Positions 6,913 to 49,499 of a stretch of 64,000 bases of DNA are shown here, in pieces. This DNA is from Candidatus Omnitrophota bacterium. Lineage in GTDB: Bacteria; Omnitrophota; Gorgyraeia; Zapsychrales; Zapsychraceae. The notes beneath the pieces were generated by a model, which was not told the origin of the DNA, searched no databases, and saw only the letters and a list, made by a program, of their open reading frames with translations. The first letter of the stretch is position 1. Each line of letters begins with the position of its first letter. Location of the stretch: NCBI GenBank assembly GCA_029261065.1, contig JAJDCB010000029.1, forward strand, positions 15,448 to 79,447. Direction: 5' to 3'. The position numbers were made by a program, and so were the translations under genes.

Positions 6913-6960
6913 AAGTGTCTCTATCATGAGCTCATTTATAGAGATACTTTGGATAAGCTT

Positions 6961-29159: not shown

Positions 29160-29165
29160 TCTAAA

Positions 29166-30725: not shown

Positions 30726-30778
30726 CAGTATTTTTAGAAAACGGAAAATCATAACAATATTTAGCTCAGGAGAAAGTA

Positions 30779-31570
30779 ATGAAAAATTGGCATGTCGTTG
30801 TTATTTGTTCATTGGGTCTTTTTTTGATATCTTGTAATCAGCCGACTAAAGTGTCTTCTCAGGAAAAGGTTGTTAGCTCATCAAAAATACTCGTTGACTA
30901 TAATATTTGGAATAATGTCTTAAGGACATACGTTAATGATGAAGGGCTGGTGAATTATGATGGTCTTAAGGCGAATCGTGGGAAGCTCGATCAATTCGTT
31001 GCTCAAGTGAAAACGGCAAATATAGACTCATTAAGCTCAAATGAAAAAAAGACGTTTTGGATTAACGCCTATAATGCTTTAACCTTAAATCTTATTGTTG
31101 ATAATTATCCTCTAAAATTTGGTGGGATTCGAACGATTAATTGGGGTAGGCCATGGAGTATTAAGATGAAGGTGGCTAACCAAGATTTGACATTAGGCGA
31201 GATTGAGCATGAGATTTTAAGAAAATGGGATCCCATTGATCCTCGTATTCATTTTGCCATCAATTGCGCCTCTATTGGATGTCCTAAATTACCCAATAAA
31301 CCCTTCTACCCTGAAACCTTGGATGAACAGTTAGAGTTTGAAGCCAAACGTTTTATCAATGATAAAGAAAAAATTCGGTTAGATAAAACTACAAATATCC
31401 TTCATTTCTCGGCTATTCTCGATTGGTTTAAGGATGATTTCTTGGTTGTGGAAGAGGACATCTTAAGTTATATTAAGAGATATCTTAACGAGGAAGATGT
31501 GAACTATTTAGAGAGCCATGAGGTAACATTAAAGGCGTCAAAGTATGATTGGGGTTTAAATAAAAAATAG
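30779..31570 (+). CDS. DUF547 domain lipoprotein
   Basis: Lipobox LISCNQ. YNALTLNLIVDNYPL and IHFAINCASIGCP match DUF547. Confidence 0.5.
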   Translation: MKNWHVVVICSLGLFLISCNQPTKVSSQEKVVSSSKILVDYNIWNNVLRTYVNDEGLVNYDGLKANRGKLDQFVAQVKTANIDSLSSNEKKTFWINAYNALTLNLIVDNYPLKFGGIRTINWGRPWSIKMKVANQDLTLGEIEHEILRKWDPIDPRIHFAINCASIGCPKLPNKPFYPETLDEQLEFEAKRFINDKEKIRLDKTTNILHFSAILDWFKDDFLVVEEDILSYIKRYLNEEDVNYLESHEVTLKASKYDWGLNKK

Positions 31571-31595
31571 TACGGATAAGATGAAGGAGAGGGAT

Positions 31596-32648
31596 ATGGA
31601 AACGTTTACACATCAAAAAGTATCAGAATATTACGGGAAGGTATTAAAGACAAAAAATGATTTAAAAACAAGTGCGTGTTGCACGTTAGATAAATTGCCG
31701 GTATATGTCAGAGAGCCTTTAAAGCTTATAGAAGATGAAATTCAAACAAAATTTTATGGGTGTGGATCGCCTTTTCCATTAGTGCTGGATGGTATGAAAG
31801 TTCTTGATTTAGGTTGTGGGACGGGGCGTGATTGTTTTGTCCTAAGTTATTTTGTAGGTGAAAAAGGTGAGGTTGTTGGGGTTGATATGACAAAGGAGCA
31901 GCTTGAGGTTGCCCATCGATATACGTCCATTCAGATGGAGAAGTTTGGATATAAGAAACCGAATGTTAAATTTTTTCATGGGTATATTGAAAATCTTCAA
32001 GAAATTGAGCTGCCAGATAATTATTTTGATATTGTTATTTCTAATTGTGTTGTGAACTTATCACCGGATAAACCTTCTGTTTTAAAAGAAGTTTTTCGTG
32101 TTTTAAAAGAGGGGGGCGAGTTCTTTTTTTCTGATGTCTATGCCGATCGTCGTTTGCCTCAGTGGGCGCGTGAAGATCAAGTTCTTTTGGGAGAGTGTTT
32201 GGGAGGGGCTTTGTATTGGAAAGATTTTGAACGGTTGGCTAAGAATACAGGCTTTAATGATCCGCGCGTCTTTGCCTGCTCTAAAATTGATTTACATGAT
32301 CAAGAAACTATTGATAAAATTGGATTTGCACATTTTAATTCTATTACATATCGCCTTTTTAAATTAAAAAATCTTGAAGATGCCTGTGAAGATTTTGGTC
32401 AGGTCGCAACATACAAGGGAACAATTAAAGAAAGCAAGCATCAGTTTATGTTAGATAATCATCACCTCTTTGAAGAGGGAAAGCCGATGCTTGTCTGTTC
32501 GAACACAGCCAGTATGCTAGAAGATACGCGTCTTAATAAACATTTTGATATTGAAGGAGATCTTTCTACACATTACGGGTTATTTGAAGGGTGTGGTGAA
32601 TCTCCTATTGAAAGTGATTCTGATAAACCAGCTGGAGGGTGTTGTTAG
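31596..32648 (+). CDS. arsM: arsenite S-adenosylmethionine methyltransferase (ArsM/AS3MT family)
   Basis: SAM motif I VLDLGCGTGRDCF. ArsM-conserved Cys contexts TSACCTLD (N-terminal Cys pair), ISNCVVNLSPDK and LLGECLGGALYW. ATG 31596 preceded by AAGGAGAG; the ORF opens at 31581. Confidence 0.65.
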   Translation: METFTHQKVSEYYGKVLKTKNDLKTSACCTLDKLPVYVREPLKLIEDEIQTKFYGCGSPFPLVLDGMKVLDLGCGTGRDCFVLSYFVGEKGEVVGVDMTKEQLEVAHRYTSIQMEKFGYKKPNVKFFHGYIENLQEIELPDNYFDIVISNCVVNLSPDKPSVLKEVFRVLKEGGEFFFSDVYADRRLPQWAREDQVLLGECLGGALYWKDFERLAKNTGFNDPRVFACSKIDLHDQETIDKIGFAHFNSITYRLFKLKNLEDACEDFGQVATYKGTIKESKHQFMLDNHHLFEEGKPMLVCSNTASMLEDTRLNKHFDIEGDLSTHYGLFEGCGESPIESDSDKPAGGCC

Positions 32649-32666: not shown

Positions 32667-33317
32667 ATGCCCATTGATATCATCATCCCCATTCTCAACG
32701 AAGAAAAAATTCTTACCGAAAAAAAAGACTACTATTCCAAACTACAGAAATTTTCCAATGTTGTCTTTGTTGATGGCGGTAGTTCTGATCGTTCTATAGC
32801 AGTGGCAGCCCAGTATGGAGAGGTTATTGAATCAAAGAAGGGACGAGCCTTTCAGAAAAACTTTGGTGCCAAACATACCCAATCCGAATTCCTCCTATTT
32901 TTACATGTTGATTCTTTTATAAATACAAAAAGTCTTAAAAAAATTGTTTCTCTATTAGAAAAGAAGAGTGTGGCTGGATGTTTTCAAATGAAAATTTTAG
33001 ATACGAGATTGATTTTTCGGTTATATGAATGGGCAGTCAATACAAGAGCGAAAACTTTAAAAGTCCTTGATGGCGATTTAGGCTTGTTTATCAGGCGTGA
33101 CGTTTTTGAAGGTTTAAATGGCTATGATCAATTGCCAGTGATGGATGACATTGTCTTTTCTAAACGTTTGCGAGATAAAGGAGAAGTTGCCATATTAGAT
33201 GACGCGATTTATGTCTCTAGCCGTAAATGGCATGAAAGTGGTTTTTATATCACGTTATTTCAATATTCTTGGGCGTATTTGAAACTGTGGTTTGGCATTC
33301 TAAGGCCTTCAAAATAA
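32667..33317 (+). CDS. glycosyltransferase, TIGR04283-like (rSAM/selenodomain-associated transferase 2 type)
   Basis: IIIPILNEE...FVDGGSSD GT-A signature. 216 aa. 19 nt downstream of arsM. Confidence 0.5.
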   Translation: MPIDIIIPILNEEKILTEKKDYYSKLQKFSNVVFVDGGSSDRSIAVAAQYGEVIESKKGRAFQKNFGAKHTQSEFLLFLHVDSFINTKSLKKIVSLLEKKSVAGCFQMKILDTRLIFRLYEWAVNTRAKTLKVLDGDLGLFIRRDVFEGLNGYDQLPVMDDIVFSKRLRDKGEVAILDDAIYVSSRKWHESGFYITLFQYSWAYLKLWFGILRPSK

Positions 33318-33423
33318 AGAGTAAAGCACAAAAAATTGATTATTTCTTGCCTTTTGCTGATATCATTTTATATTATTAATAAGAGATAAATCTTAGATTA
33401 ATCTATCATGATTGGATAAAACA

Positions 33424-34077
33424 ATGAAACTAGAAGACGTAACACAAATTTTATCATTAGCATTTACGAATGCTATACTAGAAATTTTTCAAACAACGGT
33501 TCAAATACCAGTGAAAGAAACGGAAGATGATTGCCTTCCATCTGGAGATATGTCTCTGGTTAGTTCTATTGGGATAACAGGAGGCATTTCTGGGAATGTG
33601 AGTGTCTGTTGTTCAAAAGAGTCAGTAGCTAAGGTTATTTCTAAAATGCTTGGTACGGAGGTTACGGCGGATTCTGAAGATTTGAAAGATGGGCTTGCAG
33701 AGATTGTCAATATGGTTGCAGGCTCAACAAAGAATAAATTGGAAGTCACACGTTTTCTTATAAATTTAAGTATTCCAACAACCTTGATGGGGAATCAAAT
33801 TTGTATAGAAAAGTCTAAGAATACAGAGCTTATTGAGAAAGATTTTGTTAATGATTTAGAAGGTGTTGCAATAAAAACATATTTTGCTTTTAAAATAGTT
33901 CCTGATGAAGAAGCTAAAAAAGCACAAGAGGCTATAGCTAATGCGGGGAATGCTGAGCTTAATGAGATGGAAAGTTTAATGAAATTATCGGAAGGAGCGG
34001 CTTTAGCAGAACTGGCTGAAGAGACTCCGAAAGACGATACACCGCCACCACCAACACAACCACCTCCTGCGAGTTAA
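33424..34077 (+). CDS. CheX/CheC-family protein with Pro/Ala/Glu-rich C-terminal extension
   Basis: CheX-like core (LSLAFTNAILEIFQTTVQIPV...GISGNVSVCCSKE...EIVNMVAGSTKNKL). Tail ...DDTPPPPTQPPPAS. The ORF opens at TTG 33412. Confidence 0.5.
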   Translation: MKLEDVTQILSLAFTNAILEIFQTTVQIPVKETEDDCLPSGDMSLVSSIGITGGISGNVSVCCSKESVAKVISKMLGTEVTADSEDLKDGLAEIVNMVAGSTKNKLEVTRFLINLSIPTTLMGNQICIEKSKNTELIEKDFVNDLEGVAIKTYFAFKIVPDEEAKKAQEAIANAGNAELNEMESLMKLSEGAALAELAEETPKDDTPPPPTQPPPAS

Positions 34078-34119
34078 ATATTATATCACCTTTAGATATG
34101 TTCCATTTTTTCTTTGATT

Positions 34120-34527
34120 ATGTCTGCTGAGAGCGAGAATAAAATAAATTCTGTGCGAGTTGACAAATGGTTGTGGTCTGTGCGCATTTGTAAGACGCGT
34201 AGAATTGCTTTGGATTTGTGCAAGAAGGGAAAAGTGTTTATCAATGATCAGCCAGTTAAGCCATCGCGAGATGTTAGAGTAGGAGATATTCTGTCAGTGA
34301 GACGCGACGGGATTTTATTTACTTTTGAGGTCTTAAAATGCATTGATAAGAGGGTTGGCGCACCGATTGCTGAAACTTGCAGAAAAGATAAGACTACTAA
34401 AGAAGAACTCGAAAAAATTGTCATGATTAAAAAGGGGTGGGTTCCGCGTAGAGAAAAAGGTGCTGGTCGCCCTACTAAGAAAGATCGAAGAGATATGGAA
34501 GCTTTTTTGGATCCAGATCGAGAGTAG
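34120..34527 (+). CDS. S4 RNA-binding domain protein (Hsp15/HslR-like)
   Basis: VRVDKWLWSVRICKTRRIA...GKVFINDQPVKPSRDVRVGDIL S4 motif. Basic C-terminal tail. The ORF opens at TTG 34114. Confidence 0.55.
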   Translation: MSAESENKINSVRVDKWLWSVRICKTRRIALDLCKKGKVFINDQPVKPSRDVRVGDILSVRRDGILFTFEVLKCIDKRVGAPIAETCRKDKTTKEELEKIVMIKKGWVPRREKGAGRPTKKDRRDMEAFLDPDRE

Positions 34528-34535
34528 AATAAATT

Positions 34536-35378
34536 ATGAATAGAACATCAGAACCGGTTAGAGCCCATGATACCCCTTGGCGGGCGAGTCTTTACAAAGT
34601 CATATTTGAAGCTGAAACACCAGCAGGAAAAAATTTTGATGTCGTTTTGTTGTGGGCGATTTTGATAAGTGTGATAGCTGTACTTTTAGAAAGCGTGCAG
34701 TCTATTGGCGCCCAGTATGGGGCTACTTTACGTGCCATAGAATGGATATTAACCATTCTGTTTTCAATTGAGTATTTGGTGCGATGTCTATGTGTTAAAA
34801 AGCCATTTCAATACATGAAGAGTTTTTTAGGCGTCATCGATTTTTTCGCCATTATCCCAACATTTCTCAGTTTAATTATGATAGGAGCGCAATCACTATT
34901 GGTGATTCGAGCGCTTCGTTTGTTGCGTGTTTTTCGTGTGCTTAAATTGGGGCGTTATTTAAAAGAATTTAATATCTTAATCAAAGCCCTAAAGAGTAGT
35001 TACGACAAGATTATGGTTTTTTTGTTTTCAATCCTTACCTTAACTCTCATTGCCGGAACCGTGATGTATCTCGTTGAAGGTGAGTCTAGTGGTTTTACGA
35101 GTATTCCTCGTAGCATTTATTGGGCGATTGTAACGATGACCACGGTCGGTTATGGTGATATTGCCCCAAAAACGGTTCTTGGTCAATGTATAGCCTCGAT
35201 AATTATGATTTTGGGTTATGCTATTATCGTTGTTCCCACCGGTATCTTCTCTGTTGCTCTTACGCGTGCGACATTAGAGGAGGGTTCCAAAAAATATTGC
35301 CCTCATTGTAAGATTTCCGCTTATGGTCACGACGCATATTATTGTCGCATTTGCGGGACAGCCCTGGATCTTGGTTAA
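34536..35378 (+). CDS. voltage-gated K+ channel (6TM, Kv-like) with C-terminal zinc-ribbon
   Basis: S4 voltage sensor RALRLLRVFRVLKLGRYLK. Selectivity filter TTVGYGD. C-terminus CPHCK...CRICG (CXXC...CXXC). Confidence 0.75.
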   Translation: MNRTSEPVRAHDTPWRASLYKVIFEAETPAGKNFDVVLLWAILISVIAVLLESVQSIGAQYGATLRAIEWILTILFSIEYLVRCLCVKKPFQYMKSFLGVIDFFAIIPTFLSLIMIGAQSLLVIRALRLLRVFRVLKLGRYLKEFNILIKALKSSYDKIMVFLFSILTLTLIAGTVMYLVEGESSGFTSIPRSIYWAIVTMTTVGYGDIAPKTVLGQCIASIIMILGYAIIVVPTGIFSVALTRATLEEGSKKYCPHCKISAYGHDAYYCRICGTALDLG

Positions 35379-35433
35379 CTCATTTTCCACATCCTAAGTA
35401 GAATCGATTTATTATTGTGCTATAATATGCGCT

Positions 35434-37842
35434 ATGCATAAACGGATACCTAAGTTTCTTTTTGTTTTTTTCTTTCTATCTGGGGCTAGTGCGTTGATGT
35501 TTGAGATCGTCTGGCAACGCTTAATGGTTCTTATATTTGGGTCGAGTGCTCCGGCAACTACGGCTATTCTGACGGCTATTTTCTGTGGTTTTGCCTTAGG
35601 CAGTTGGGTGGGAGGAAAACTTTTACGGAAGATTAAACGTGTTTATCTTTTTTACGCGGCCATTGAGATTTGGATTTGCCTTTGGGGTATTTCGGTTCCG
35701 CATCTTCTTAAAGGGGCTGATGCCCTACAATTGATTATGTTTAAAAGTGCTTCGATGGGGAGTTTGTCATTCTTTTTTGGTCGTTTTGCGTTGGCAATTT
35801 TGGCTGTTCTTCCCGCGACATTTGGGATGGGGGCTACCATCCCAGTCATGAACAAAATTTTAACACAATTTCGATCCATTGGACCTGGAATTGCTTTGGC
35901 TTATGGAGTCAATACGATTGGCTCAGTGGGGGGCTGCCTCTTAACAGGGATCGTATTGATACCAACGTTGGGCATCAACCATTCTTTGATGGTCGCTGGA
36001 AGCATGAACTTAATTGTTGGATTTGGGTTATGGATTTATTCCGTGGCAGGCCAAGAACGCGTTCTGGCTATTGCTAGCGAGGATAAGATTTCTGAGCAGA
36101 AAACACAGCCTAAGCTTAAATCTTCTCTTACATCGCAGTTAATGTTTTTTTATTTTATTTCTGGCTTTTTAGCCCTTGGTTACGAAATTGTTTGGTTTCG
36201 TTTGATGGGGATGTTGACCACAAACTCTATGATCACCTTTACCGTAGGTCTCGCGGTTTACCTTTTGGGTTTTTCTTCCGGAAGCCTTCTTCTTTATCCA
36301 GCGCTTTCAAAACGTTTATCAGCAGGGTGGATTTTTTTCTATTCCAATGTTGGTGCTGGTCTGATGACGTTATGTTTGATTCCTCTCTATTATTATTTTT
36401 CTGATATTAACCATTTACGCTTTTTAGATCAATGGTTTGATGCGTGGCAGTTAACACCTTATTTACGTATAGTCCTAGAGGAAGGTTTTTTTGCCTTCAT
36501 CATTATGTTGATTCCACCTGTTTTTATGGGGCTCGCCTATCCATCCATTTGTGCCTTAACGATTTCTGATGTAAGTCAAACACCCAATCGAAGTGGTTGG
36601 ATTTATTCTCTTGGCACCTTTGGCGCGGCTTGCGGTGCGATTTTGGTGGGGTTAGGTATTGTGCCGATTTTTGACATTATGATGAGTTTAGCTCTTTTGT
36701 GTTTAATGAGTTTTATATTATCTTTTGCCACAATGATGAGTATTGATTCTGATTTTCGAAAAGTAAAAGGGTCTTTATCAACAGTTCTGATTTTTTTGAT
36801 CATCATCGCATTAAGTTACGGTTTTTTAGCTCATCCCATTATTAGGGGAGGAGGTCGTTTGACTAAGAGCGGGGATCACTGGTTATTTAAAGATCCTCAT
36901 CCGGAATTCCCTAACGCTAAACGAAGTTTGCATCGCTATAAATCGGGTGGTGTTGGAAATGTTAGTGTGGATCAATTTGAAACGAGAAAAGAAACATTTC
37001 GACGGTTGTTAATAGACGGACAGAGAGTTGCTTCAACAAGGTTTGGGCCAAAGGTCGATGCCAAGATGCTCGCGCATGTTCCGTTAGCCATTCATCCCCA
37101 ACCAGAACGTGCTTTAAGTGTGGGTTTTGGTAGTGGAGGTACATCTTGGTCGATGACACGTTACGGCATTGAAGTGGATTGTGCAGAGATCGAACCAGAG
37201 GTTGTCCGTTCCGCTCATCTATTTTCTGATCAAAATTATAATATTTTAGAGGAGCCTAACTACCGTGTTATCATGAATGATGTTCGTAATTATCTTCATT
37301 TAACGGAGCAACGTTATGATGTCGTTTCAACGGATGTCACAAATTTGCAGTATAAACAAAATGGGAGTTTATATACTAGAGAATACTTTCAATTAATAAA
37401 AGATCATTTGACTAGTGATGGTGTGGCTGCCGTATGGATGCCGATGCTTTGGAGTAATGTTTATGATTTTCAAATATTACTTAAGACCTTTCAAACAGTC
37501 TTTCCACATAGTTCTGTTTGGTATTTTGACAGTTATTATGTGATCCTCATTGGCACCCCTGAGCCATTAGAAGTTGATGAAAAACGTTTAGCCTCTCTTT
37601 TCCGTGATCCTAAAATTGCTGCTGATCTAAAGGAAATCAATGTTACAACTCCTGAGCAATTTCTTGAATTTTTGATTATGGATGAAGAGGGGGTGAGTAA
37701 AATTTCAGAAGGGATGCCGATACATACCGATGATTATCCCATTTTAGAATTTAGAAATATTCCTCATCTCTATTATGGACAAATGGTGACACTTAAGGAT
37801 ATTGCCCCTTTTCTCATCGATTCTACATCAATTGCGGAATAA
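35434..37842 (+). CDS. fused polytopic membrane domain / spermidine-synthase-like aminopropyltransferase
   Basis: About 14 N-terminal TM helices. C-terminal SpeE-like fold (ALSVGFGSGGTSWSM, VIMNDVRNYL, YDVVSTDV). Confidence 0.55.
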   Translation: MHKRIPKFLFVFFFLSGASALMFEIVWQRLMVLIFGSSAPATTAILTAIFCGFALGSWVGGKLLRKIKRVYLFYAAIEIWICLWGISVPHLLKGADALQLIMFKSASMGSLSFFFGRFALAILAVLPATFGMGATIPVMNKILTQFRSIGPGIALAYGVNTIGSVGGCLLTGIVLIPTLGINHSLMVAGSMNLIVGFGLWIYSVAGQERVLAIASEDKISEQKTQPKLKSSLTSQLMFFYFISGFLALGYEIVWFRLMGMLTTNSMITFTVGLAVYLLGFSSGSLLLYPALSKRLSAGWIFFYSNVGAGLMTLCLIPLYYYFSDINHLRFLDQWFDAWQLTPYLRIVLEEGFFAFIIMLIPPVFMGLAYPSICALTISDVSQTPNRSGWIYSLGTFGAACGAILVGLGIVPIFDIMMSLALLCLMSFILSFATMMSIDSDFRKVKGSLSTVLIFLIIIALSYGFLAHPIIRGGGRLTKSGDHWLFKDPHPEFPNAKRSLHRYKSGGVGNVSVDQFETRKETFRRLLIDGQRVASTRFGPKVDAKMLAHVPLAIHPQPERALSVGFGSGGTSWSMTRYGIEVDCAEIEPEVVRSAHLFSDQNYNILEEPNYRVIMNDVRNYLHLTEQRYDVVSTDVTNLQYKQNGSLYTREYFQLIKDHLTSDGVAAVWMPMLWSNVYDFQILLKTFQTVFPHSSVWYFDSYYVILIGTPEPLEVDEKRLASLFRDPKIAADLKEINVTTPEQFLEFLIMDEEGVSKISEGMPIHTDDYPILEFRNIPHLYYGQMVTLKDIAPFLIDSTSIAE

Positions 37843-37902
37843 TTCGTTTAAGCTTAGGAAGAGAAAATGCATGAGTTTGGCATGGCGTCTAAGAGTCTCA
37901 AA

Positions 37903-37911
37903 TGTTATAAT
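37903..37911 (+). promoter_or_regulatory. extended -10 promoter element (TGtTATAAT) upstream of the GGDEF gene
   Basis: tgttataat at 37903-37911, 42 nt upstream of ATG 37953. Confidence 0.3.
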
Positions 37912-37952
37912 CCTTCCAGAAAACCGACCAATCTTTTTCAAATTTTGATCCT

Positions 37953-39401
37953 ATGGGTAGTTTTAATAAAAAGAAAAAATTTTCAGAAGTTTTAGCAAAA
38001 GAATCAACGGGTAAATATGTACGGCCTGAAGATTCTAAAATGTATAAACGTTTGATGGATCGCGCGCATAGCGGGGTTTATATTGCTGATGAGCGTGGTT
38101 TAATATTTTATGTCAATGATGCCTTGGTCCGTATGTTGGGCTATAGTTCGCAAAAGGAAATATTGGAACGAAGTCTGATCGAAGTCTTATATGGTAGTCC
38201 TGAGGCTGGTTTTGAATTTTATGATGCCATGGAGGAGCTGGGATTTATTAATGATTATGAAATAGCTAACAAAAAGGCTGATGGTTATGAAATTGTGTTG
38301 TCTGTCACTAGTCATTTTATTCGAGAGGGTGCTGGAAAGGTTAAAGGGGTTGAGGGGATCGTGTATGACAGGACAGAGACAAAGAAGATAGAGAAATCTT
38401 TAACAAAAGAAAAACAAAAATTAGAGGAAATATTAAACCTTGGTGATAAGGTTACAACAATAAGAGAGTTTCAGGAGTTGATTGATTTTGTTGTAGATCG
38501 TATAGCCGTTATTTTAGAGGCGAGGGTTTGTTCGATCCTATTGGTTGATGAGAACAGCGGAACCCTTAAGATTGCAGGGGCATTTGGTCTTGATAAGGAA
38601 ATTATTGAGAAAACAGAAATTAGTGTGGGCGATCCGATAGCCGGTGTTGTCGCTAAAGATTTAATTCCTATCTTAGTTAAAAATATTGAATACGACGAAC
38701 GTTTTAAACGCGCCAATCGTGAAGGTTACACCAATCAATCTTTTATGATTGTCCCCATTTTAGTAGGTGATGAGTTATTAGGGGTGATTGATGTAGCTGA
38801 TAAGATTTCGGATGTCTCGATCGGTGCATCATTTGATGAGATCGATCTCAAAATTCTTGCCTCTTTAGCCCGCGAAACAGCTGTTGCCATTGATAATTTA
38901 AAGGTCATCACAGATCTAAATTTACAAACGGTAACAGATCCTTTAACGCGAATATACAATTACAGAAAGTTTTCTGATAGTTTGGAACATGAAATTAAGC
39001 GTCTAGGACGGACCAAGGGCAATTTGTGTGTGATGATGCTCGATCTTGATAATTTTAAATCTTATAACGATAGTTTTGGTCATTTAGAAGGCGATACTCT
39101 TCTAAGAGGTATTGGCGAAATCTTAAGAAAAAATTTACGTGACACAGATATTGTATGTCGTTATGCTGGTGATGAGTTTGTCATAGTCTTACCTGATACT
39201 AACATCGAAGGTCTAAAAGAATCTGCCACTAAAGTTATTCGTGAAGTTTCGGCTCACCCTTTTAAACGTCAGGTTACTGTAAGTTTAGGAGCTGCTCGTT
39301 ATCAAGAGGGAATGACGTCCAATGAGTTGATGCTTAAAGCGGATAAATCACTTTATGAGGCAAAGGAAAAAGGTAAGAATCAGTTTTATATATTAGAGTA
39401 A
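37953..39401 (+). CDS. PAS-GAF-GGDEF signalling protein (diguanylate cyclase, AGDEF variant)
   Basis: PAS region (SGVYIADERGLIFYVNDAL). GAF region. GGDEF domain with RYAGDEF active-site variant and LDLDNFKSYND. Confidence 0.65.
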   Translation: MGSFNKKKKFSEVLAKESTGKYVRPEDSKMYKRLMDRAHSGVYIADERGLIFYVNDALVRMLGYSSQKEILERSLIEVLYGSPEAGFEFYDAMEELGFINDYEIANKKADGYEIVLSVTSHFIREGAGKVKGVEGIVYDRTETKKIEKSLTKEKQKLEEILNLGDKVTTIREFQELIDFVVDRIAVILEARVCSILLVDENSGTLKIAGAFGLDKEIIEKTEISVGDPIAGVVAKDLIPILVKNIEYDERFKRANREGYTNQSFMIVPILVGDELLGVIDVADKISDVSIGASFDEIDLKILASLARETAVAIDNLKVITDLNLQTVTDPLTRIYNYRKFSDSLEHEIKRLGRTKGNLCVMMLDLDNFKSYNDSFGHLEGDTLLRGIGEILRKNLRDTDIVCRYAGDEFVIVLPDTNIEGLKESATKVIREVSAHPFKRQVTVSLGAARYQEGMTSNELMLKADKSLYEAKEKGKNQFYILE

Positions 39402-39493
39402 TGCTACGAGTTAAATGAAACACCACTTTTAATTATCAAATACCCCACCCTTGTAAAATGTCTGAGATCTCCAATAAAGCGAATAAGAATAAT

Positions 39494-40951
39494 TTATTGT
39501 TCTTGGTATAAACTATAATTGTAAAATGTCGCTACCTTTTTAGTTTGTAGAAATAATTCTCTAGGTAAATCATAGATGTTGTCATCGTTGATCGCAAAGA
39601 AATCTTTTTTGTTGTCTTTAAGATAAGGAAAATAATATTTATGCTCAATGATAGGGGTGTCTACGGCACTACCTTGAGCATAAAAATCTGCTGAGTAAGG
39701 CATGTGATCCACATACACAAGTTGACTAGCTACATCGGGTCGCAGTTCTTTATATTTATTAACGATATCGACTTGAGAAGATTGACGGCCTACTGAGGGT
39801 AAAATGGTTATGGCCGCAATAATTAAGGCTAGTGGAGCAAGGAGTGATGTTATGAGAAATGTGTTTGGTTTAGCGGGCCAAGATAATGGCTTTGATTGCT
39901 GTTTTTCTAATAATAAGATGAGACGTGCCGTAATTAATGCAAAGGCCGGTAAAGCGGGTATCAGATAAGTCATTAAGATGTTACTAGCAATAGTAAATAA
40001 AATAAGAGGGGAAAGTAACCATAAGAGTATTAAAATCCAGATTTCATTTTCAAAAATGGCTTTAAATTTTACTTTTGCTTTCTTTAAATACATCAAAGCG
40101 CCAACCATAATAATGGTCCAGGGCATGGTGACGGGAATGGCAAATAACCAAATCATTCCTTTAGGTTGTGAATGTCCTTTACCATATAAATCCCCTTCCC
40201 AACCGCTTACCGTAAAACGTTTGAAATGTTCGCCCACAATAAAATAATTAAGAAATCCGGGAGTTTTCATCTCAGCTAAGACGTACCAAGGAATTGCGAT
40301 TAAGGCTGTTAAGAGAAGGCCTGTAATCCAAGGTAGGGAAAGCCAGAGTCGTTTCCATTGGCGATATATGATAAGCCATAAAACAATCGGGATAAAAATT
40401 AAAACAGCGCCAACGGGACCTTTGGCTAATAAACTTAAAGCCAGTCCGATAAAAAAAAGATAACCCCAATATTTCGAAGGGTGTGGCGATTGTAAACAAA
40501 AAATTAAAGAGATCATACTTAGTGTAATGGCTGTTGAAAGGGCCGGATCTGTCATAACACTACCGGCATTAACAAAAAACATACCTGTTGTTGCCAGAAT
40601 ACAACCAGCCATTAGCCCATATTTAGGGTTGATTAAGTGTTTACCAAGTAGATATGTAAAATATAGCATCAGGATGGCTAGAAGAAAGGAAGGAAGACGG
40701 GCTGAGAATTCACCTTCACCTAAAAGTTGAAAGCTGATCGCTGTTAACCAAAAAGAAAGTGGGGGTTTCCCCCAAAAGGGTAATCCTTGTTCTAGCTGAG
40801 GGGTGACCCAGTTTTGGGTGGCAACCATTTCTCGGCCTATTTCGGCATAACGAGCCTCAGTTTTATCCATTAAGGGATAGGTGCCTAAAGATATGAGGCG
40901 TGCGATGCAGGCAAGCAATATGAGTGTAATGAAAAGTTTTGGTTGATTCAT
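39494..40951 (-). CDS. GT-C membrane glycosyltransferase, ArnT/PMT (GT39/GT83) family
   Basis: N-terminus ...DKTEARYAEIGREMVATQNWVTPQL matches the ArnT/PMT first periplasmic loop. About 12 TM segments. Confidence 0.6.
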   Translation of the reverse strand: MNQPKLFITLILLACIARLISLGTYPLMDKTEARYAEIGREMVATQNWVTPQLEQGLPFWGKPPLSFWLTAISFQLLGEGEFSARLPSFLLAILMLYFTYLLGKHLINPKYGLMAGCILATTGMFFVNAGSVMTDPALSTAITLSMISLIFCLQSPHPSKYWGYLFFIGLALSLLAKGPVGAVLIFIPIVLWLIIYRQWKRLWLSLPWITGLLLTALIAIPWYVLAEMKTPGFLNYFIVGEHFKRFTVSGWEGDLYGKGHSQPKGMIWLFAIPVTMPWTIIMVGALMYLKKAKVKFKAIFENEIWILILLWLLSPLILFTIASNILMTYLIPALPAFALITARLILLLEKQQSKPLSWPAKPNTFLITSLLAPLALIIAAITILPSVGRQSSQVDIVNKYKELRPDVASQLVYVDHMPYSADFYAQGSAVDTPIIEHKYYFPYLKDNKKDFFAINDDNIYDLPRELFLQTKKVATFYNYSLYQEQ

Positions 40952-40957
40952 GGACTG

Positions 40958-41683
40958 TTAAATGTTTTTCTTCATGTTGCGTTTTATTGAAATAATTTCT
41001 CGAAGAACGCCAAGGGCATTGTGATGCGGTAAAACGCGACTGTCAGGATCGCTTTTCCAAGTGACAGGAAACTCTAAAACGCGATATCCATGTTTAAAGG
41101 CTAAAAGTAAGATTTCAATATCAAACATAAATTCATGACTTTGACAGAGAGAAAATAATTGATGAGCCGTTTTTTTCGTATAGATTTTAAATCCACATTG
41201 AGTGTCTGTAAAAGATTGCGGTAGGCCGATGTAAAGATTAATAAAGGTTCGAAAGGCTTTTGAAAGGAATTGTCTAGACGGAGATTGTTGGTGTTTGATA
41301 ACACTATTTTTGTGTCGGCGGGTTCCTATGGCAATATCACATTCCTTATTATTAATGAGACTTAATCCTTTAAGCGCATAATCGTAGGGAATACACAGAC
41401 CACTATCAGCAAACATAATGATATTACCTACAGCTGCTAGCATGCCTGTTTTCACAGCAAAACCTTTGCCTTTATTGTTTTCGTAGCGAATGACTTGAAT
41501 TTTGACTTGGTTTGAGGTTTCAACTTCGCGAGCCTTTTTCGCAGTATCATCCTGACTGCCATCATCAACAACGATGATTTCACCTTTTAGCCCCTGTTTG
41601 GTGAGAAAATGGTTGGCTGCATTTACATCATCTTTTATTTTGTGAGCTTCATTATAAGCTGGAATAACAATTGAAAAATCCAT
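40958..41683 (-). CDS. GT2 polyprenyl-phosphate sugar synthase (ArnC/Dpm1-like)
   Basis: FSIVIPAYNE, VVDDGSQD. 241 aa. 6 nt upstream of the ArnT-like gene on the same strand. Confidence 0.65.
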   Translation of the reverse strand: MDFSIVIPAYNEAHKIKDDVNAANHFLTKQGLKGEIIVVDDGSQDDTAKKAREVETSNQVKIQVIRYENNKGKGFAVKTGMLAAVGNIIMFADSGLCIPYDYALKGLSLINNKECDIAIGTRRHKNSVIKHQQSPSRQFLSKAFRTFINLYIGLPQSFTDTQCGFKIYTKKTAHQLFSLCQSHEFMFDIEILLLAFKHGYRVLEFPVTWKSDPDSRVLPHHNALGVLREIISIKRNMKKNI

Positions 41684-41829
41684 GTATTCTTTCGTTTTGT
41701 CTCAAAAATGTGAGTTTGATACTCATTATAGGGAAAAATTCTTAATATGAAACATAATTATTGACCTTTTATCTTAAGAATAAGAAGCATTTTTATATTT
41801 TGGGGTCTTTGTGTTATACTTAGTACCCT

Positions 41830-43059
41830 ATGGGGAAATTCTGCACTAGACCATTTGAATGGATTGAGATCCAGAATAAAGACGCTTATCTGTGTTGTCC
41901 GGGTTGGATGAAGGACATAAAGGGGGTAAGTATTGAGGGTAAGAGTGTCAATGAGATATGGAATGACCCTCATTTTCAGGATATCCGAGCATCCATTTTA
42001 GATGGTTCCTTTCGATACTGTGATTCTCAGTTTTGTCCGTTTATGAAGCAGCCAGATATGCCTCATTGGGAGGAGAGTGGTTCGCCTTTCAAAGATAAGG
42101 ATGGTATAAAAGATCCAGCCTTGCGTCATATTATTGAGCAGAAAATCACTCATTTAGAATCTCCCCCATTGATTTGGAATTGTGGTCATGATAGGACGTG
42201 TAATTTGTCATGTCCTTCTTGTCGCAGCAAGATTTTTGCGTTAGCCCAGCAATATGTTCAAAAAGAAATAGCCTTTAGTGATTTCGTTTTATCGGAAATT
42301 GGTCAAGACTTGAAATATCTTTATATCACCGGAACAGGTGATCCTTTCGCCAGTCAAGTTTATCGAGAACTTTTATCACAGTTATCATCAGAACAATATC
42401 CAAAATTAGAGGTGCATCTGCATACCAATGCTGTTTTATGGACGAAAAAGAATTGGGAGACCATGAGTGGCATTAATCAACGTATCACATCAACACATAT
42501 CTCTATGGATGCGGTAACGGCACAGACGTATGGCATTGTTCGTCGAGGAGGCGACTTTGGTATCTTGATGGAAAATCTTAAGTTTGTGGCACAGTTAAGA
42601 AAAGAAGGGCCGTTGAAATACGTTATGATTAGTTTTGTTGTTCAAGATGCTAATTTTCGTGAGATGCCTCGCTTTATTGAAATTTGTGAAGAGTTTGGTT
42701 TTGATTTGGTTTTGTTTACGAGGGTAAGAAATTGGAATCTTTTTACACCCTATGAGTTTGATCAACTAGCTGTTGATCAACCCATTCATCCCGATCATAA
42801 TGCATTTTTAGATATCTTAAAGCAGCCCTGTTTTGACAAACCTCATGTTGGTATTGGAAATTTTTCAGGATTAAGAAAGAAAGCTTTGGCTCAATCTTCG
42901 CAAAAGAAAATCGTTTCGGTTACAGAGAATATGGTTTATCGATATCAGTGGTATGTTAGACGATTGAAACAATGGTTCATTGAGCACTTTCCAATTCTTG
43001 CCAAACAATTGATTCATTTGAAACAACGGATTTTAAGAAAGGGAAAGCTCGCAGCGTGA
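41830..43059 (+). CDS. radical SAM protein with N-terminal Cys-rich extension
   Basis: CNLSCPSC (CX3CX2C) at about aa 120. N-terminal extension with 5 Cys (CTRPFEW...YLCCPGW...RYCDSQFCPF). Stop overlaps the next gene's start (GTGA). Confidence 0.5.
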   Translation: MGKFCTRPFEWIEIQNKDAYLCCPGWMKDIKGVSIEGKSVNEIWNDPHFQDIRASILDGSFRYCDSQFCPFMKQPDMPHWEESGSPFKDKDGIKDPALRHIIEQKITHLESPPLIWNCGHDRTCNLSCPSCRSKIFALAQQYVQKEIAFSDFVLSEIGQDLKYLYITGTGDPFASQVYRELLSQLSSEQYPKLEVHLHTNAVLWTKKNWETMSGINQRITSTHISMDAVTAQTYGIVRRGGDFGILMENLKFVAQLRKEGPLKYVMISFVVQDANFREMPRFIEICEEFGFDLVLFTRVRNWNLFTPYEFDQLAVDQPIHPDHNAFLDILKQPCFDKPHVGIGNFSGLRKKALAQSSQKKIVSVTENMVYRYQWYVRRLKQWFIEHFPILAKQLIHLKQRILRKGKLAA

Positions 43060-43727
43060 AGAAGGTTCATTCTCTCATTATTTTTGCAAGGGAACCGCGA
43101 GAGGGGAAAGTTAAAACGCGATTAGCCAAAGATTTATCAAAGCCAGTTGTTTTAAGTTTGTATAAAAATTTTATTAAAGATGTTCTAATTGTTGCCAAAA
43201 AAGTCTCCTCTCAGAGGCGCTATATTTTTTATGTGGGATTAAGCCGCTCCATTCCATTTTTAAGATCTTATCAAAAGTCATTTATATTAAAACGTCAATT
43301 TGGTAAAGACTTAGGAGAGAGGATGTTAAGAGCCTTTCTTTGTGCTGCCCGGGAAGGGGCCCATTCGACCATTATTATCGGAACGGACTGTTTGACGATC
43401 ACAGCGAAAGATATTGAAGCGGCTTTTGCCAAACTAAAAACGCATGATTGTGTCTTAGGCCCAAGCATTGATGGTGGGTATTACCTAATAGGTCTAAATA
43501 AACCCTGTCCCAGCTTATTTAATGATATAGTTTGGAGCACGGAAAAGGTTCTTGATCAAACGTTAAAACGGGCAAAGAGCAATAATATGAAGGTGGCTTT
43601 ATTATCCAAAAAAGAGGATATCGATACGATTTCTTCTTTTAGGAAATATGCTAAAAAGGTTGTCAATTCTTCTGAGGATTCGTATACTAGGAGACTAATT
43701 AAGACTCGTTTATTGAGCGAAATTTAG
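43056..43727 (+). CDS. DUF2064 / TIGR04282-like nucleotidyl-transferase-fold protein (rSAM/selenodomain-associated transferase 1 type)
   Basis: N-terminus SLIIFAREPREGKVKTRLA is the hallmark DUF2064 motif. GTG start overlapping the upstream TGA. Confidence 0.5.
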   Translation: MKKVHSLIIFAREPREGKVKTRLAKDLSKPVVLSLYKNFIKDVLIVAKKVSSQRRYIFYVGLSRSIPFLRSYQKSFILKRQFGKDLGERMLRAFLCAAREGAHSTIIIGTDCLTITAKDIEAAFAKLKTHDCVLGPSIDGGYYLIGLNKPCPSLFNDIVWSTEKVLDQTLKRAKSNNMKVALLSKKEDIDTISSFRKYAKKVVNSSEDSYTRRLIKTRLLSEI

Positions 43728-43795
43728 TTGTATAGTATTAAAGTGATTCTTAATTACTCTTCTAGAGTTATGAATGAGGCCATTAAATATCTATT

Positions 43796-44794
43796 ATGAA
43801 AATTTTACATCTGTATTCTCAAAAAAGTGAACATCTATCCGCGTTTATTGACGATTTATCGCAAAAACTGTTTGCCAGTGATGTTGTTGTTGAACAAATG
43901 TGTTTGAAAAAAGCAAATGGTTTAAAAGCGATTTGGGATTTGTCTCGGAAAATTAAAAAAGAGAAGATCGATTGTGTGCACAGCCATGATCGATCTTCTT
44001 TAATTATAGGAACATTAGCCGCACGTCTGGCCGCTTCTTTGGCGATAAGTACGGTTCATCAGGTTTATCCAAAGAAGGTTTCTTCTTTTATTTGGAATTT
44101 AAATAAAAACGTTGTTTTTGCCACACGCTACATTAAGACGAGAATGTTAAGAAGAAATCGTATGGCTGCTCATCGTATTTCTGTTATTTATCGAGGAATA
44201 GAGATAGAGACAAATGGCGTGTTTGATAAAAATCAGGAACGAGCACAGTGGGGGGTAAATCCTGAGAGTTTTATTATTGGCAGTGCTGGGCCGTTAGAAT
44301 TTAATGAGGATCAAACAACCTTGTTAAAGGCTTTTCGTAAATTACGCAAAAAGAATTTAGATTCTCAATTGGTTTTTGCAACAAAGGGTTCTTTAAAAGA
44401 TCATTTAAAGACAAAGGCCAAAGAATTTGATGTTTTAGATCGTGTTGTATTTTTAGATGGAAAATCAGATCTTAATCAATTTTTACAATCCATCGATTTA
44501 CTAGTTGTTTCCGCTATTGATGGGCCAAGACCTGAGATGTTGTTGCAGTCGATGAGGGCAGGAACGGCTGTGATTGCGACTAATATTTTTGGGCATGATG
44601 AATATGTTGAGCATAATAAAACAGGCTATTTGGTTCCTTGTGGATATCCTGAGAAAATTGATACATCCATTATGCGTTTGAATGCGATTAAAACATTGCC
44701 AGCTCAAATGGGCGAGGCCGCTCGAGAAAGAGGTCAAGAAACTTTTAATTTAGGTCATATGTCTGAATCTTATTTAAAGCTGTATACGCAATAG
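43796..44794 (+). CDS. glycosyltransferase family 4 (GT-B)
   Basis: C-terminal GT1/GT4 motif region (LLVVSAIDGPRPEMLLQSMRAGTAVIATNIFGHDEYV...GYLV). Confidence 0.55.
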   Translation: MKILHLYSQKSEHLSAFIDDLSQKLFASDVVVEQMCLKKANGLKAIWDLSRKIKKEKIDCVHSHDRSSLIIGTLAARLAASLAISTVHQVYPKKVSSFIWNLNKNVVFATRYIKTRMLRRNRMAAHRISVIYRGIEIETNGVFDKNQERAQWGVNPESFIIGSAGPLEFNEDQTTLLKAFRKLRKKNLDSQLVFATKGSLKDHLKTKAKEFDVLDRVVFLDGKSDLNQFLQSIDLLVVSAIDGPRPEMLLQSMRAGTAVIATNIFGHDEYVEHNKTGYLVPCGYPEKIDTSIMRLNAIKTLPAQMGEAARERGQETFNLGHMSESYLKLYTQ

Positions 44795-44887
44795 GTATGG
44801 TTAGAACATTTGGGTTTCTGGTGCTTTTGTTATTTTGTGATATACTTATCCAAAAATATCAGATTTAAGAAAGAAAGGAATTAGGGA

Positions 44888-45247
44888 ATGGATATTCAAA
44901 TTAATACGTCAGAACGCCCTTGGGGGTATTACATAAAATTTTTACAAGAAGAAGGTGTTTGGGTTAAACGTGTGGAAGTTAAGCCTGGATGCCGGTTAAG
45001 CCTACAAAAACATGCTCATCGATCAGAAAAGTGGAATATTGTCACAGGCGTTGGTGTTGTCACCTTAGATGATCAAGAAATCCCAGTCAAAGCGGGATCC
45101 ATCATAGATGTCCCCTTAGGCGCTGTACACCGGATTGCCAATACAGGAGATTCAAAACTTGTATTTATTGAAGTCGCTTGCGGTGATGAATTATCCGAAG
45201 ATGACATTATTCGCATTCAGGACGATTATAATCGCGAAGATGCTTAA
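44888..45247 (+). CDS. cupin domain protein (mannose-6-phosphate isomerase type II C-terminal-like)
   Basis: Cupin motifs RLSLQKHAHRSEKWNIVTG and GAVHRIANTGDSKLVFIEV. Confidence 0.5.
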   Translation: MDIQINTSERPWGYYIKFLQEEGVWVKRVEVKPGCRLSLQKHAHRSEKWNIVTGVGVVTLDDQEIPVKAGSIIDVPLGAVHRIANTGDSKLVFIEVACGDELSEDDIIRIQDDYNREDA

Positions 45248-45372
45248 TCAGTAAGCATATTTAACAATTTTCTCCTTCCTCAATCAAGAATTAAGCTCAA
45301 AAGTTGCCTCATATCAAAAGTTTAGCATCTTTCCAAGATTAGGGTATAATAGTCTAACCTTAGGAAGATACT

Positions 45373-48668: not shown

Positions 48669-48670
48669 TA

Positions 48671-49426: not shown

Positions 49427-49499
49427 GAATTTAAGGGGGGTGTTAAAAATAAATTGAAATTATGACTTATCTTATAACCACATGAGGTAAAGTTCAAAC

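Follow-up and report, generated by a model that had tools for sequence, protein, structure and literature searches.

Closest described systems

Two described systems are among the closest points of comparison for the locus analysed here. The first is BtrN, a 2-deoxy-scyllo-inosamine dehydrogenase with a carbohydrate-like substrate, whose auxiliary domain is of the twitch type. Twitch domains contain one auxiliary [4Fe-4S] cluster, SPASM domains contain two. The second is the arsenosugar cassette, in which ArsS is the radical SAM (rSAM) partner of TIGR04282 and TIGR04283 proteins. The name “arsenosugar glycosyltransferase” given to TIGR04282 derives from genomic association.

The window, i.e. 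the whole 64-kb stretch of DNA analysed, resembles an arsenosugar cassette in that an rSAM gene is encoded beside a TIGR04282 gene. The protein resembles BtrN in having one Cys-rich auxiliary-cluster domain, predicted to consist of a β-hairpin followed by a helix. To our knowledge, no member of the rSAM family concerned, or of its sister family NF033640, has an experimentally determined function, and none was found in the searchable literature. Literature searches on DUF2064 together with radical SAM, on TIGR04282, TIGR04283, NF033640 and TIGR04167, and on N-terminal SPASM or twitch domains retrieved nothing relevant beyond database names.

The gene pair and its overlap

The following features define the gene pair:

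41830..43059, plus strand: rSAM enzyme of 409 aa, with a putative N-terminal twitch/SPASM-type domain, the core, and a clade-specific C-terminal helical tail
43056..43727, plus strand: DUF2064/TIGR04282 protein (PF09837, TIGR04282) with a CofC/MobA-like nucleotide-diphospho-sugar-transferase fold
43056..43059, plus strand: 4-bp GTGA overlap of the GTG start of the DUF2064 gene and the TGA stop of the rSAM gene, read from the sequence

The initial annotation had described two open reading frames, with the TGA of the rSAM gene overlapping the GTG of the DUF2064 gene, and this arrangement was confirmed. The rSAM gene starts with ATG, and the DUF2064 gene, encoding 223 aa, starts with GTG at position 43056. 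The sequence of the junction is ...gcagcGTGAagaag..., and the TGA of the rSAM gene is at 43057-43059.

Genes are closely packed throughout the window: of the 52 pairs of adjacent genes on the same strand, 8 overlap and another 14 are separated by no more than 20 nt. One further overlap of 4 bp exists, between the hemC/cobA/hemD fusion gene and hemB, and hemB in turn overlaps hemL by 16 bp, so that both pairs consist of heme-pathway genes. In a window of this density, a 4-bp overlap is no rare event, but it is a reasonable sign of co-transcription. The rSAM and DUF2064 genes are thus probably co-transcribed in the Omnitrophota genome studied, and the overlap possibly implies translational coupling. 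When the surroundings of the pair were scanned for promoters and terminators, the counts did not differ from those in shuffled sequence. The view that the overlap means little, overlaps being common, is weakened by the other overlapping pairs identified, which are functionally related heme genes. Because the other pair with a 4-bp overlap is of this kind, the rSAM and DUF2064 genes may have acquired a new, lineage-specific functional link.

The rSAM protein belongs to a sister group of NF033640

Three regions of the rSAM protein were delimited:

41836..42045, plus strand: putative auxiliary Fe-S (twitch-type) domain, residues ~3-72, with Cys5, Cys22, Cys23, Cys64, and Cys69
42199..42222, plus strand: CX3CX2C motif (C124, C128, C131), predicted to bind the SAM-cleaving [4Fe-4S] cluster
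42856..43056, plus strand: basic helical C-terminal tail, residues 343-408, from the AlphaFold2 (AF2) model, in the closest subclade only

The CX3CX2C motif had been placed near residue 120, and it is indeed formed by C124, C128, and C131, which are invariant in all 120 rSAM homologues. Three further Cys residues are present at positions 118, 286, and 334. The match of the window protein to the radical SAM profile PF04055 reaches 19.3 bits, under the gathering threshold of 29.5, and most of the homologues carry a precomputed match to this profile. The AF2 model (pLDDT 93.1, pTM 0.89) was compared with known structures using Foldseek, which gave a probability of 1.0 for the cores of viperin, DesII, BlsE, SuiB, NifB, and anSME, with E-values down to 7e-08. 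By its motif as well as by the predicted fold of its core, the protein is a member of the radical SAM superfamily.

The top NCBIfam match is NF033640 (N_Twi_rSAM, “twitch domain-containing radical SAM protein”), with 72 bits compared to a curated cutoff of 170. The alignment is nevertheless end to end, with residues 3-388 matching positions 3-392 of the 398 in the model. All 33 homologues that were sampled likewise have NF033640 as their highest-ranking NCBIfam family, the top E-value being 5e-24, consistent with all 33 falling below the cutoff. As judged from these sequence comparisons, the rSAM family is a sister group of NF033640 that has no NCBIfam model of its own. Helices of the C-terminal tail comprise residues 343-357, 361-386, and 388-408 in the AF2 model, and residues 360-400 are aligned by only 10 of the 120 homologues.

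The N-terminal extension resembles a twitch domain

The five N-terminal Cys residues are essentially invariant, as C5 is conserved in 116/116 homologues, C22 in 116/117, C23 in 117/117, and C64 and C69 in 120/120 each. The Pfam SPASM profile (PF13186) matched all 20 N-termini of the family that were compared, with a best E-value of 5e-12. The N-terminus of the window protein scored 17.3-20.6 bits, slightly under the cutoff of 21.5, and precomputed matches to PF13186 exist for the majority of the 120 homologues listed. A profile of the family N-termini matched the twitch domain of BtrN (4m7s, residues 169-240) weakly (E = 0.07), and this marginal alignment puts Cys5 and the CC pair on Cys positions of BtrN. 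In the AF2 model, the domain consists of a β-hairpin (residues 11-20) followed by helices (residues 40-57). In addition, a BLAST comparison of the N-terminal domain with the C-terminal twitch domain of the rSAM protein of locus L128 gave an E-value of 6e-07, and the C-terminal twitch domains of the rSAM proteins of L111 and L128 match positions 4-69 of NF033640.

The evidence thus favours a SPASM/twitch-type auxiliary Fe-S domain ahead of the core. An auxiliary-cluster domain had been one of two options considered initially, and the SPASM matches, the weak BtrN match, and the full-length alignment with NF033640 all point to it. The extension had also been called novel, a description that does not hold, given the existing NCBIfam model of the sister family and the 1652 homologues returned by a search with the rSAM protein. 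The five conserved Cys residues suggest one putative auxiliary cluster.

The position of the domain differs from the canonical one of PF13186, i.e. C-terminal to the core, as residues 3-72 precede the CX3CX2C motif at 124-131. The twitch domain is C-terminal in BtrN but N-terminal in the window protein, which has five conserved Cys residues. The permuted order, with the auxiliary domain before the core, is common to the window protein and NF033640. The N-terminal Cys domain is of a known auxiliary-cluster type, and its placement ahead of the core is already represented in NCBIfam.

In the expected mechanism, the core cluster would reductively cleave SAM, and the resulting 5′-deoxyadenosyl radical would abstract a hydrogen atom from the substrate. 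The cluster of the N-terminal domain, which is probably a single [4Fe-4S], might aid substrate binding or take an electron, as in the BtrN-type twitch enzymes.

The rSAM protein is not of the ArsS type

The initial annotation had noted that the C-terminal Cys tail expected for ArsS is missing, and this was borne out. No match to TIGR04167 (ArsS) was found for the window protein at E ≤ 0.01, and it has neither DUF3641 nor a C-terminal Cys tail, its C-terminus being helical, basic, and free of Cys. A genuine ArsS from locus L100, used as a control, scored 395 bits (TIGR04167 cutoff 300) and contains DUF3641. Neither the 64-kb window nor any of the seven related Omnitrophota cassette loci contains an ArsS gene. 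The possibility that another rSAM gene of the window, at 6949..7887, encodes an overlooked ArsS was considered. Its product has a similar Cys tail and aligns with TIGR04167 over the full length, albeit weakly (55.7 bits versus the cutoff of 300). This candidate was rejected, because DUF3641 is missing and its BLAST similarity to genuine ArsS is confined to the core.

The DUF2064 protein belongs to a conserved Omnitrophota cassette

The assignment of the downstream protein to DUF2064/TIGR04282 proved correct, as it passes both curated thresholds, with 106.7 bits for PF09837 (cutoff 25.8; E = 8.5e-31) and 191.7 bits for TIGR04282 (cutoff 134). Its N-terminus is (V/M)KKVHSLIIFAREPREGKVKTRLA, in agreement with the sequence quoted initially. 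The family profile matched PDB entry 3cgx, named “putative nucleotide-diphospho-sugar transferase”, over almost the full length (E = 2.5e-47). The nearest available orthologue is 61% identical. The protein itself is thus ordinary for the TIGR04282 family, and it is only the upstream neighbour that differs from that in relatives.

The surrounding features are as follows:

28449..31570, plus strand: upstream part of the cassette, i.e. GT2, MptA/B-like membrane protein, and DUF547 (Pfam and NCBIfam), colinear with loci L083, L085, and L087
31581..32648, plus strand: ArsM-like SAM methyltransferase (176.6 bits to NF008823, arsenite methyltransferase, below the cutoff of 263)
32667..33317, plus strand: TIGR04283-family GT2 (192.6 bits, cutoff 182)
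33412..43059, no single strand: lineage-specific segment of ~9.7 kb with eight genes, between TIGR04283 and TIGR04282
39494..41683, minus strand: divergent pair of a polyprenyl-phosphate glycosyltransferase-like GT2 and an ArnT/PMT-like GT-C protein, 146 bp from the rSAM start
43796..45247, plus strand: GT4 glycosyltransferase and ManC-C-terminal-like cupin (Pfam), following DUF2064 and belonging to the ancestral block

The order of the cassette in Omnitrophota is GT2, MptB-like, DUF547, ArsM-like, TIGR04283 GT2, TIGR04282, (GT4), cupin, and rpoN. The genes at 26600-33317 and from 43056 onward are colinear with those of relatives. The ArsM-like protein shares 70-81% identity with its orthologues from four relatives, and the Cys pattern is conserved among them. 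Downstream, the order DUF2064-GT4-cupin is also found in L175, and the cupin gene follows DUF2064 in L085, L088, L173, and L174.

In six of the seven related loci, a TIGR04283-type GT2 gene abuts DUF2064 on the upstream side (L083, L085, L087, L173, L174, L175), with a 4-bp overlap in L173 and L175. A DegT aminotransferase gene lies directly upstream of DUF2064 in L088, which indicates that this position tolerates unrelated insertions. In the window, the TIGR04283 member is present, but it is non-adjacent, being located 9.7 kb upstream. The eight genes in between encode a CheX-like protein, an Hsp15-like protein, a K+ channel, an MFS/spermidine-synthase fusion, a PAS-GAF-GGDEF protein, the ArnT-like protein and the GT2 (both on the minus strand), and the rSAM protein, and none of them has a counterpart in the four syntenic loci compared. 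The segment was also searched for flanking repeats, direct or inverted, which revealed only short, imperfect, AT-rich matches and no mobile-element signature.

As the ArsM-like/TIGR04283/TIGR04282/DUF547 cassette of Omnitrophota lacks an adjacent ArsS, the “arsenosugar” label is doubtful for the genes of this phylum.

The two families do not co-occur in the loci sampled

Co-occurrence of the two families was analysed from both sides. Neither tblastn nor an HMM derived from 120 sequences of DUF2064 detected DUF2064 in any of the 80 rSAM-family loci (species representatives, ±10 kb). Conversely, the rSAM family was present in none of 66 metagenomic DUF2064 loci, i.e. those with a called DUF2064 ORF among 80 that were fetched, and in none of the seven syntenic loci from Omnitrophota. 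The best matches to the rSAM family in DUF2064 loci did not exceed 65-69 bits, compared to 260-605 bits for true members. The canonical partners found within the 66 DUF2064 loci were TIGR04283 (26), ArsS (11), ArsM-like (8), and DUF547 (6), so that ArsS occurs in 11 of these loci but the rSAM family of the window in none. The proposal that the rSAM protein could be a second, distinct rSAM partner of DUF2064 is therefore not supported by the co-occurrence analysis. The two genes do not constitute an evolutionarily conserved functional pair, and their adjacency is confined to the genome studied.

The rSAM family has a genomic context of its own. The 133 immediate neighbours of its members include Methyltransf_24 (13), GT2 (11), GT4 (9), DUF6473/sulfotransferase (8), polysaccharide deacetylase (6), and NodS (5), and about half belong to no recurrent class. 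The closest homologues are flanked by genes for GT2 and GT4 enzymes, GT11, UDP-GlcNAc 2-epimerase, and capsule synthesis. Fusions of rSAM and GT2 domains exist in both orders (P0008, P0076). This prevalence of neighbours that build or decorate glycans, together with the occasional GT2 fusion, suggests that the substrate is most likely a sugar, an oligosaccharide, or a lipid-linked glycan intermediate. Given the fusions to GT2 and the Nod-factor-like neighbours, the wider family might carry out an undescribed radical modification of glycans. Because it is large, uncharacterised, clustered with glycan genes, and sometimes fused to GT2, it is a reasonable target in the search for a radical sugar- or glycan-modifying reaction.

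Explanations for the gene arrangement

Taken together, it is likely that two unrelated modules, the rSAM protein with its N-terminal twitch domain and the DUF2064 protein of the cassette, were juxtaposed by a lineage-specific rearrangement. In the ancestral state, the TIGR04283 gene would have stood directly upstream of DUF2064 and been translationally coupled to it, as in the relatives. With eight extra genes between TIGR04283 and DUF2064, of which the rSAM gene is the last, the latter would have taken the upstream position with the 4-bp overlap. The direction and timing of the rearrangement, i.e. insertion here versus loss elsewhere, are read by parsimony. The gene pair would then be an accident of local rearrangement that matters little, the DUF2064 protein being a standard TIGR04282 member.

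It is possible, albeit doubtful, that the rSAM protein instead partners the divergent GT2 and ArnT-like pair and modifies a polyprenyl-phosphate-linked sugar before its transfer across or outside the membrane, with DUF2064 as a bystander. The rSAM and GT2 genes share the divergent intergenic region of 146 bp, the GT2 (PF00535) is similar to the polyprenyl-phosphate sugar synthases PpgS and ArnC, its neighbour (PF02366; NF009784 ArnT 146 bits, below cutoff) is similar to GT-C proteins of the ArnT/PMT type, and GT2 recurs as a neighbour or fusion partner of the rSAM family. More speculatively, the basic helical tail of the closest subclade could bind to the membrane. However, an ArnT-like gene beside a member of the rSAM family was found only in the contig of the window itself. 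A specific resemblance of the window GT2 to the rSAM-fused GT2 domains was considered and rejected, because only a generic motif is shared (E = 0.002-0.013). The DUF2064 protein has no similarity to the rSAM-fused GT2 domains.

We consider it improbable that a partnership has been newly recruited, with the rSAM protein acting in an ArsM-like/TIGR04283/TIGR04282 pathway, e.g. performing the radical step of ArsS, and hence being co-translated with DUF2064. This would fit with the GTGA overlap, with the tendency of overlapping pairs in the window to be true operon partners, with the lack of ArsS described above, and with the retention of the ArsM-like Cys pattern in the methyltransferase. It is at variance with the absence of co-occurrence elsewhere (0/80 and 0/66 loci) and with the relatives, which have the same cassette without an adjoining rSAM gene. 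Moreover, seven unrelated genes separate the rSAM gene from ArsM/TIGR04283, the protein lacks the ArsS signature (TIGR04167, DUF3641, Cys tail), the context of its own family consists of glycosyltransferases, and DegT fills the same slot in L088. The stricter version, in which the rSAM protein was captured into the cassette, coupled to DUF2064, and became a non-orthologous replacement for the radical step of ArsS, is no less improbable; if true, it would link DUF2064 chemistry to a second radical SAM family.

That the rSAM protein is a maturase of ribosomal peptides (RiPPs), like many SPASM/twitch enzymes, is highly improbable and was rejected on genomic context: the NCBIfam and Foldseek similarities to WgkB, StsB, SuiB, SkfB, and anSME that speak for it are weak, sub-threshold, and confined to the core, the upstream gap of 146 bp and the overlapping downstream gene leave no room for a precursor gene, and among the 133 immediate neighbours no peptidase or exporter genes recur, whereas glycan enzymes do, in line with the GT2 fusions within the family.

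The overlapping gene pair

Two forward-strand ORFs with an overlapping TGA and GTG had been proposed in the initial annotation, and both were found:

41830..43059, +, radical-SAM (rSAM) ORF, 409 aa, ATG start
43056..43727, +, DUF2064 ORF, 223 aa, GTG start

The junction sequence is gcagcGTGAagaag, in which the DUF2064 start codon (GTG) runs into the rSAM stop codon (TGA) and the two ORFs overlap by 4 bp; the DUF2064 protein starts with ...SLIIFAREPREGKVKTRLA. Among the 52 same-strand adjacent pairs in the window, 8 overlap and another 14 are ≤20 nt apart. The second pair with a 4-bp overlap (hemC/cobA/hemD fusion and hemB) and the hemB-hemL pair (16-bp overlap) are heme-pathway partners, and the rSAM/DUF2064 overlap is therefore fair evidence of co-transcription rather than noise. 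The fusion (23563-25656, +) is one 697-aa ORF with hemC (hydroxymethylbilane synthase), cobA/cysG C-terminal (uroporphyrinogen-III C-methyltransferase) and hemD (uroporphyrinogen-III synthase) regions.

Judged by profile scores, the DUF2064/TIGR04282 assignment is secure, as initially annotated (PF09837, 106.7 bits; TIGR04282, 191.7 bits, cutoff 134); the relationship to CofC is weaker. A profile of 30 relatives matched PDB 3cgx, entitled "putative nucleotide-diphospho-sugar transferase", over almost the full length (E 2.5e-47).

A lineage-specific segment probably splits an ancestral gene pair

The nearest DUF2064 relatives belong to Candidatus Omnitrophota. Seven distinct related loci (L083, L085, L087, L088, L173, L174, L175) share a block of hemL, DUF3568, GT2, MptA/B-like, DUF547, ArsM-like methyltransferase and small GT2 genes, continued by DUF2064, (GT4), cupin, rpoN (reverse strand), MerR, Wza and Wzz. 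In 6 of the 7 loci the small GT2 immediately precedes DUF2064; the junctions vary between an overlap of 14 bp and a gap of 6 nt, and the overlap is exactly 4 bp in L173 and L175. A DegT aminotransferase gene occupies this position in L088. An rSAM gene directly upstream of DUF2064 was found in 0 of the 7. In the window, the block covers 26600-33317 and 43056-53818, adjoining rpoN and Wza/Wzz, and includes:

26600..27928, hemL
28449..29159, GT2
29166..30725, MptB-like
30779..31570, DUF547
31581..32648, ArsM-like methyltransferase (NF008823, 176.6 bits, cutoff 263; conserved Cys pattern)
32667..33317, TIGR04283 member (192.6 bits, cutoff 182)

Gene-by-gene comparison showed that the window is colinear with the related loci to 33317 and again from 43056, and that the eight window genes at 33412-43059 have no counterparts in the four syntenic loci compared. 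These are CheX-like, Hsp15-like, K+ channel, MFS/spermidine-synthase fusion and PAS-GAF-GGDEF genes, then ArnT-like and GT2 genes on the reverse strand, and the rSAM gene. The latter is thus the final gene of a lineage-specific segment of ~9.7 kb that splits TIGR04283 from TIGR04282, an ancestral pair with translational coupling. Neither repeats at its borders nor genes of a mobile element set this segment apart, and we therefore describe it as a rearrangement or gene gain, not as a defined mobile element. By parsimony, the seven loci and the general adjacency of TIGR04283 and TIGR04282 point to gain in the window lineage, not loss elsewhere. In one Omnitrophota lineage (L088/L089, 4789-5988), a DegT/DnrJ/EryC1 aminotransferase gene lies between TIGR04283 and TIGR04282, so that this junction was invaded independently at least twice.

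ArsS (TIGR04167), the rSAM partner in arsenosugar cassettes, was not found within the examined flanks of the block in the window and the seven loci. The "arsenosugar glycosyltransferase" label of the DUF2064 family derives from genomic association, and the "arsenosugar" label of TIGR04282/TIGR04283 may not fit the product of the Omnitrophota cassette. By analogy with its relatives, DUF2064 most likely still acts with the TIGR04283 protein and the ArsM-like methyltransferase.

The rSAM family and DUF2064 do not co-occur in the sampled loci

The rSAM had been suggested to be a second, distinct partner of DUF2064. For 80 species-representative loci of the rSAM family, with flanks of up to 10 kb on each side, DUF2064 was absent from all 80, both by tblastn and with an HMM of 120 DUF2064 sequences. 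Conversely, 80 metagenomic DUF2064 loci were fetched, and none of the 66 with a called DUF2064 ORF contained a member of the rSAM family. The strongest matches reached only 65-69 bits, versus 260-605 bits for true members, and are rSAMs with a C-terminal twitch domain. The same data set recovered the expected partners:

Partners recovered in the 66 DUF2064 loci
TIGR04283 GT2: 26/66, directly adjacent in 19 (representative 265 bits)
ArsS: 11/66 (395 bits, with DUF3641)
ArsM-like methyltransferase: 8/66
DUF547: 6/66 unrelated loci

The proposed partnership is therefore not upheld: the position of the rSAM gene beside DUF2064 is probably an accidental juxtaposition of two genes of known kinds. 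Conventional rSAMs with a C-terminal twitch domain are present in three DUF2064 loci (L111:2220-3476, L128:9414-10472 and L164:2175-3269), in L128 and L164 ~0.7 kb downstream of DUF2064.

The rSAM carries an N-terminal twitch-type domain

The rSAM matched PF04055 (19.3 bits) and, with residues 5-64, Pfam SPASM (17.3 bits), both sub-threshold. Its top NCBIfam match was NF033640, "twitch domain-containing radical SAM protein" (72 bits, cutoff 170), aligned end to end (residues 3-388 versus model positions 3-392 of 398); ArsS was not among its NCBIfam matches. A search yielded 1652 homologues at E ≤0.001, most with precomputed PF13186 (SPASM) and PF04055. NF033640 was the top family for 33 of 33 sampled members, yet the best E-value was only 5e-24, which by sequence makes this a sister family of NF033640 without a curated model of its own.

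The core motif CX3CX2C (C124/C128/C131) is preceded by five N-terminal cysteines. Among non-gap residues of the best 120 of the 1652 homologues, these are conserved in 116/116 (C5), 116/117 (C22), 117/117 (C23) and 120/120 (C64 and C69), and each core cysteine in 120/120.

All of 20 N-terminal segments of family members matched Pfam SPASM (best E 5e-12). Among solved structures, their profile best matched BtrN in its C-terminal twitch domain (4m7s 169-240); the E-value, 0.07, is marginal, and in this alignment Cys5 and the CC pair coincide with BtrN cysteines. The window N-terminus also matched the C-terminal Cys domain of the ordinary L128 rSAM (BLAST, E 6e-07), and the L111 and L128 rSAMs match NF033640 model positions 4-69 with their last ~70 residues. 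From these similarities we assign the first ~100 residues to a twitch/SPASM-type domain, homologous to conventional C-terminal twitch domains. The extension is thus not novel, and the alternative of an auxiliary-cluster domain gains support. In BtrN the twitch domain is C-terminal, whereas here it is N-terminal, and the architecture resembles a permutation of the usual domain arrangement. The match of the C-terminal twitch of the L111, L128 and L164 rSAMs to the start of NF033640 (positions 4-69) suggests that enzymes with a C-terminal twitch gave rise to the N-twitch families through permutation or domain shuffling.

The AlphaFold2 model, based on a 33-sequence alignment, is confident (pLDDT 93.1, pTM 0.89). 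Its N-domain has a beta-hairpin (11-20) and then helices (40-57), which we take to be the characteristic twitch layout. Beyond this domain lie the barrel and, behind it, three long helices (343-408), a tail common to only 10 of 120 homologues. Foldseek against the PDB retrieved only rSAM cores (viperin, DesII, BlsE, NifB, SuiB, SkfB, anSME) with query-normalised TM-scores of 0.32-0.40, and thus no solved structure with the complete architecture.

Glycan-related neighbourhood and possible function

A Pfam scan of 133 immediate neighbours at 68 rSAM-family loci gave the following recurrent families, all of them glycan-related:

Neighbours of rSAM-family genes (of 133)
Methyltransf_24: 13
GT2: 11
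GT4: 9
DUF6473 (with sulfotransferase domain): 8
Polysaccharide deacetylase: 6
NodS-type methyltransferase: 5

The same-strand downstream gene is a GT2 in 12 loci, and the upstream one Methyltransf_24 in 11. Two homologues are fusions, GT2 then rSAM in P0008 (694 aa) and twitch-rSAM then GT2 in P0076 (664 aa), by sequence a Rosetta-stone link of the family to glycosyltransferases. The genes of the closest homologues (44-54% identity) lie beside a GT2/GT4 fusion and GT11 (L002), a GT2/GT4 fusion and UDP-GlcNAc 2-epimerase (L090), capsule and Wzy genes (L091), or between GT4 and GT2 (L092, an Omnitrophota genome).

In a subset of the family loci L003-L082 (e.g. L023, L010, L036), rSAM is flanked by genes for polysaccharide deacetylase, NodS-type methyltransferase, sulfotransferase/DUF6473 and GT2, a set resembling NodB/NodS/NodH/NodC, the enzymes for decoration of chito-oligosaccharides. 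The family is also present in several genomes of the anammox genera Brocadia and Scalindua. Two window genes fall within or close to the glycan-related region:

35434-37842, +, 802-aa fusion of an MFS-like membrane domain and a spermidine-synthase-like domain
47004-48668, -, 554-aa membrane protein carrying TPR repeats at its C-terminus; a GT2 gene is adjacent

Directly established for the rSAM are the canonical motif, the conserved N-terminal twitch/SPASM-type Cys domain and the glycan-enzyme context. The core cluster would cleave SAM, and the resulting 5'-deoxyadenosyl radical would abstract hydrogen from the substrate, whether a sugar, an oligosaccharide or a lipid-linked glycan. The five cysteines suggest that the N-terminal domain probably holds a single [4Fe-4S] cluster, which might position the substrate or accept an electron, as in BtrN-type dehydrogenases. 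Candidate reactions are oxidation, epimerisation, deoxygenation and C-C/C-X bond formation.

The rSAM may be tied specifically to the GT2 and ArnT-like genes that diverge from it at a distance of 146 bp; this reading is plausible, if tentative, and agrees with an accidental position beside DUF2064 as the main explanation. Specific similarity of this GT2 to the rSAM-fused GT2 domains was not found. Recruitment into the ArsM/TIGR04283/TIGR04282 pathway in this lineage only would fit the co-expression implied by the overlap and the failure to find ArsS in the window or related loci, but it is improbable, as the relatives have no rSAM at that position, the window rSAM lacks the features of ArsS, and the position upstream of DUF2064 also takes DegT. 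A role as RiPP maturase is very improbable from the genomic context. Glycan modification remains our preferred function.

A second radical-SAM gene lies between transaldolase and 6-phosphogluconolactonase:

6949-7887, +, 312 aa, CNLSCPFC at aa 46-53

Within NCBIfam it best matches the Rv1681 family (103 bits, with a cutoff of 380), and it matches ArsS weakly over the full length (55.7 bits, cutoff 300). In contrast to genuine ArsS, it is without DUF3641, and its BLAST similarity to genuine ArsS is confined to the core; its C-terminal tail, RCYSCFAQGASCSEI, is similar to the ArsS tail.
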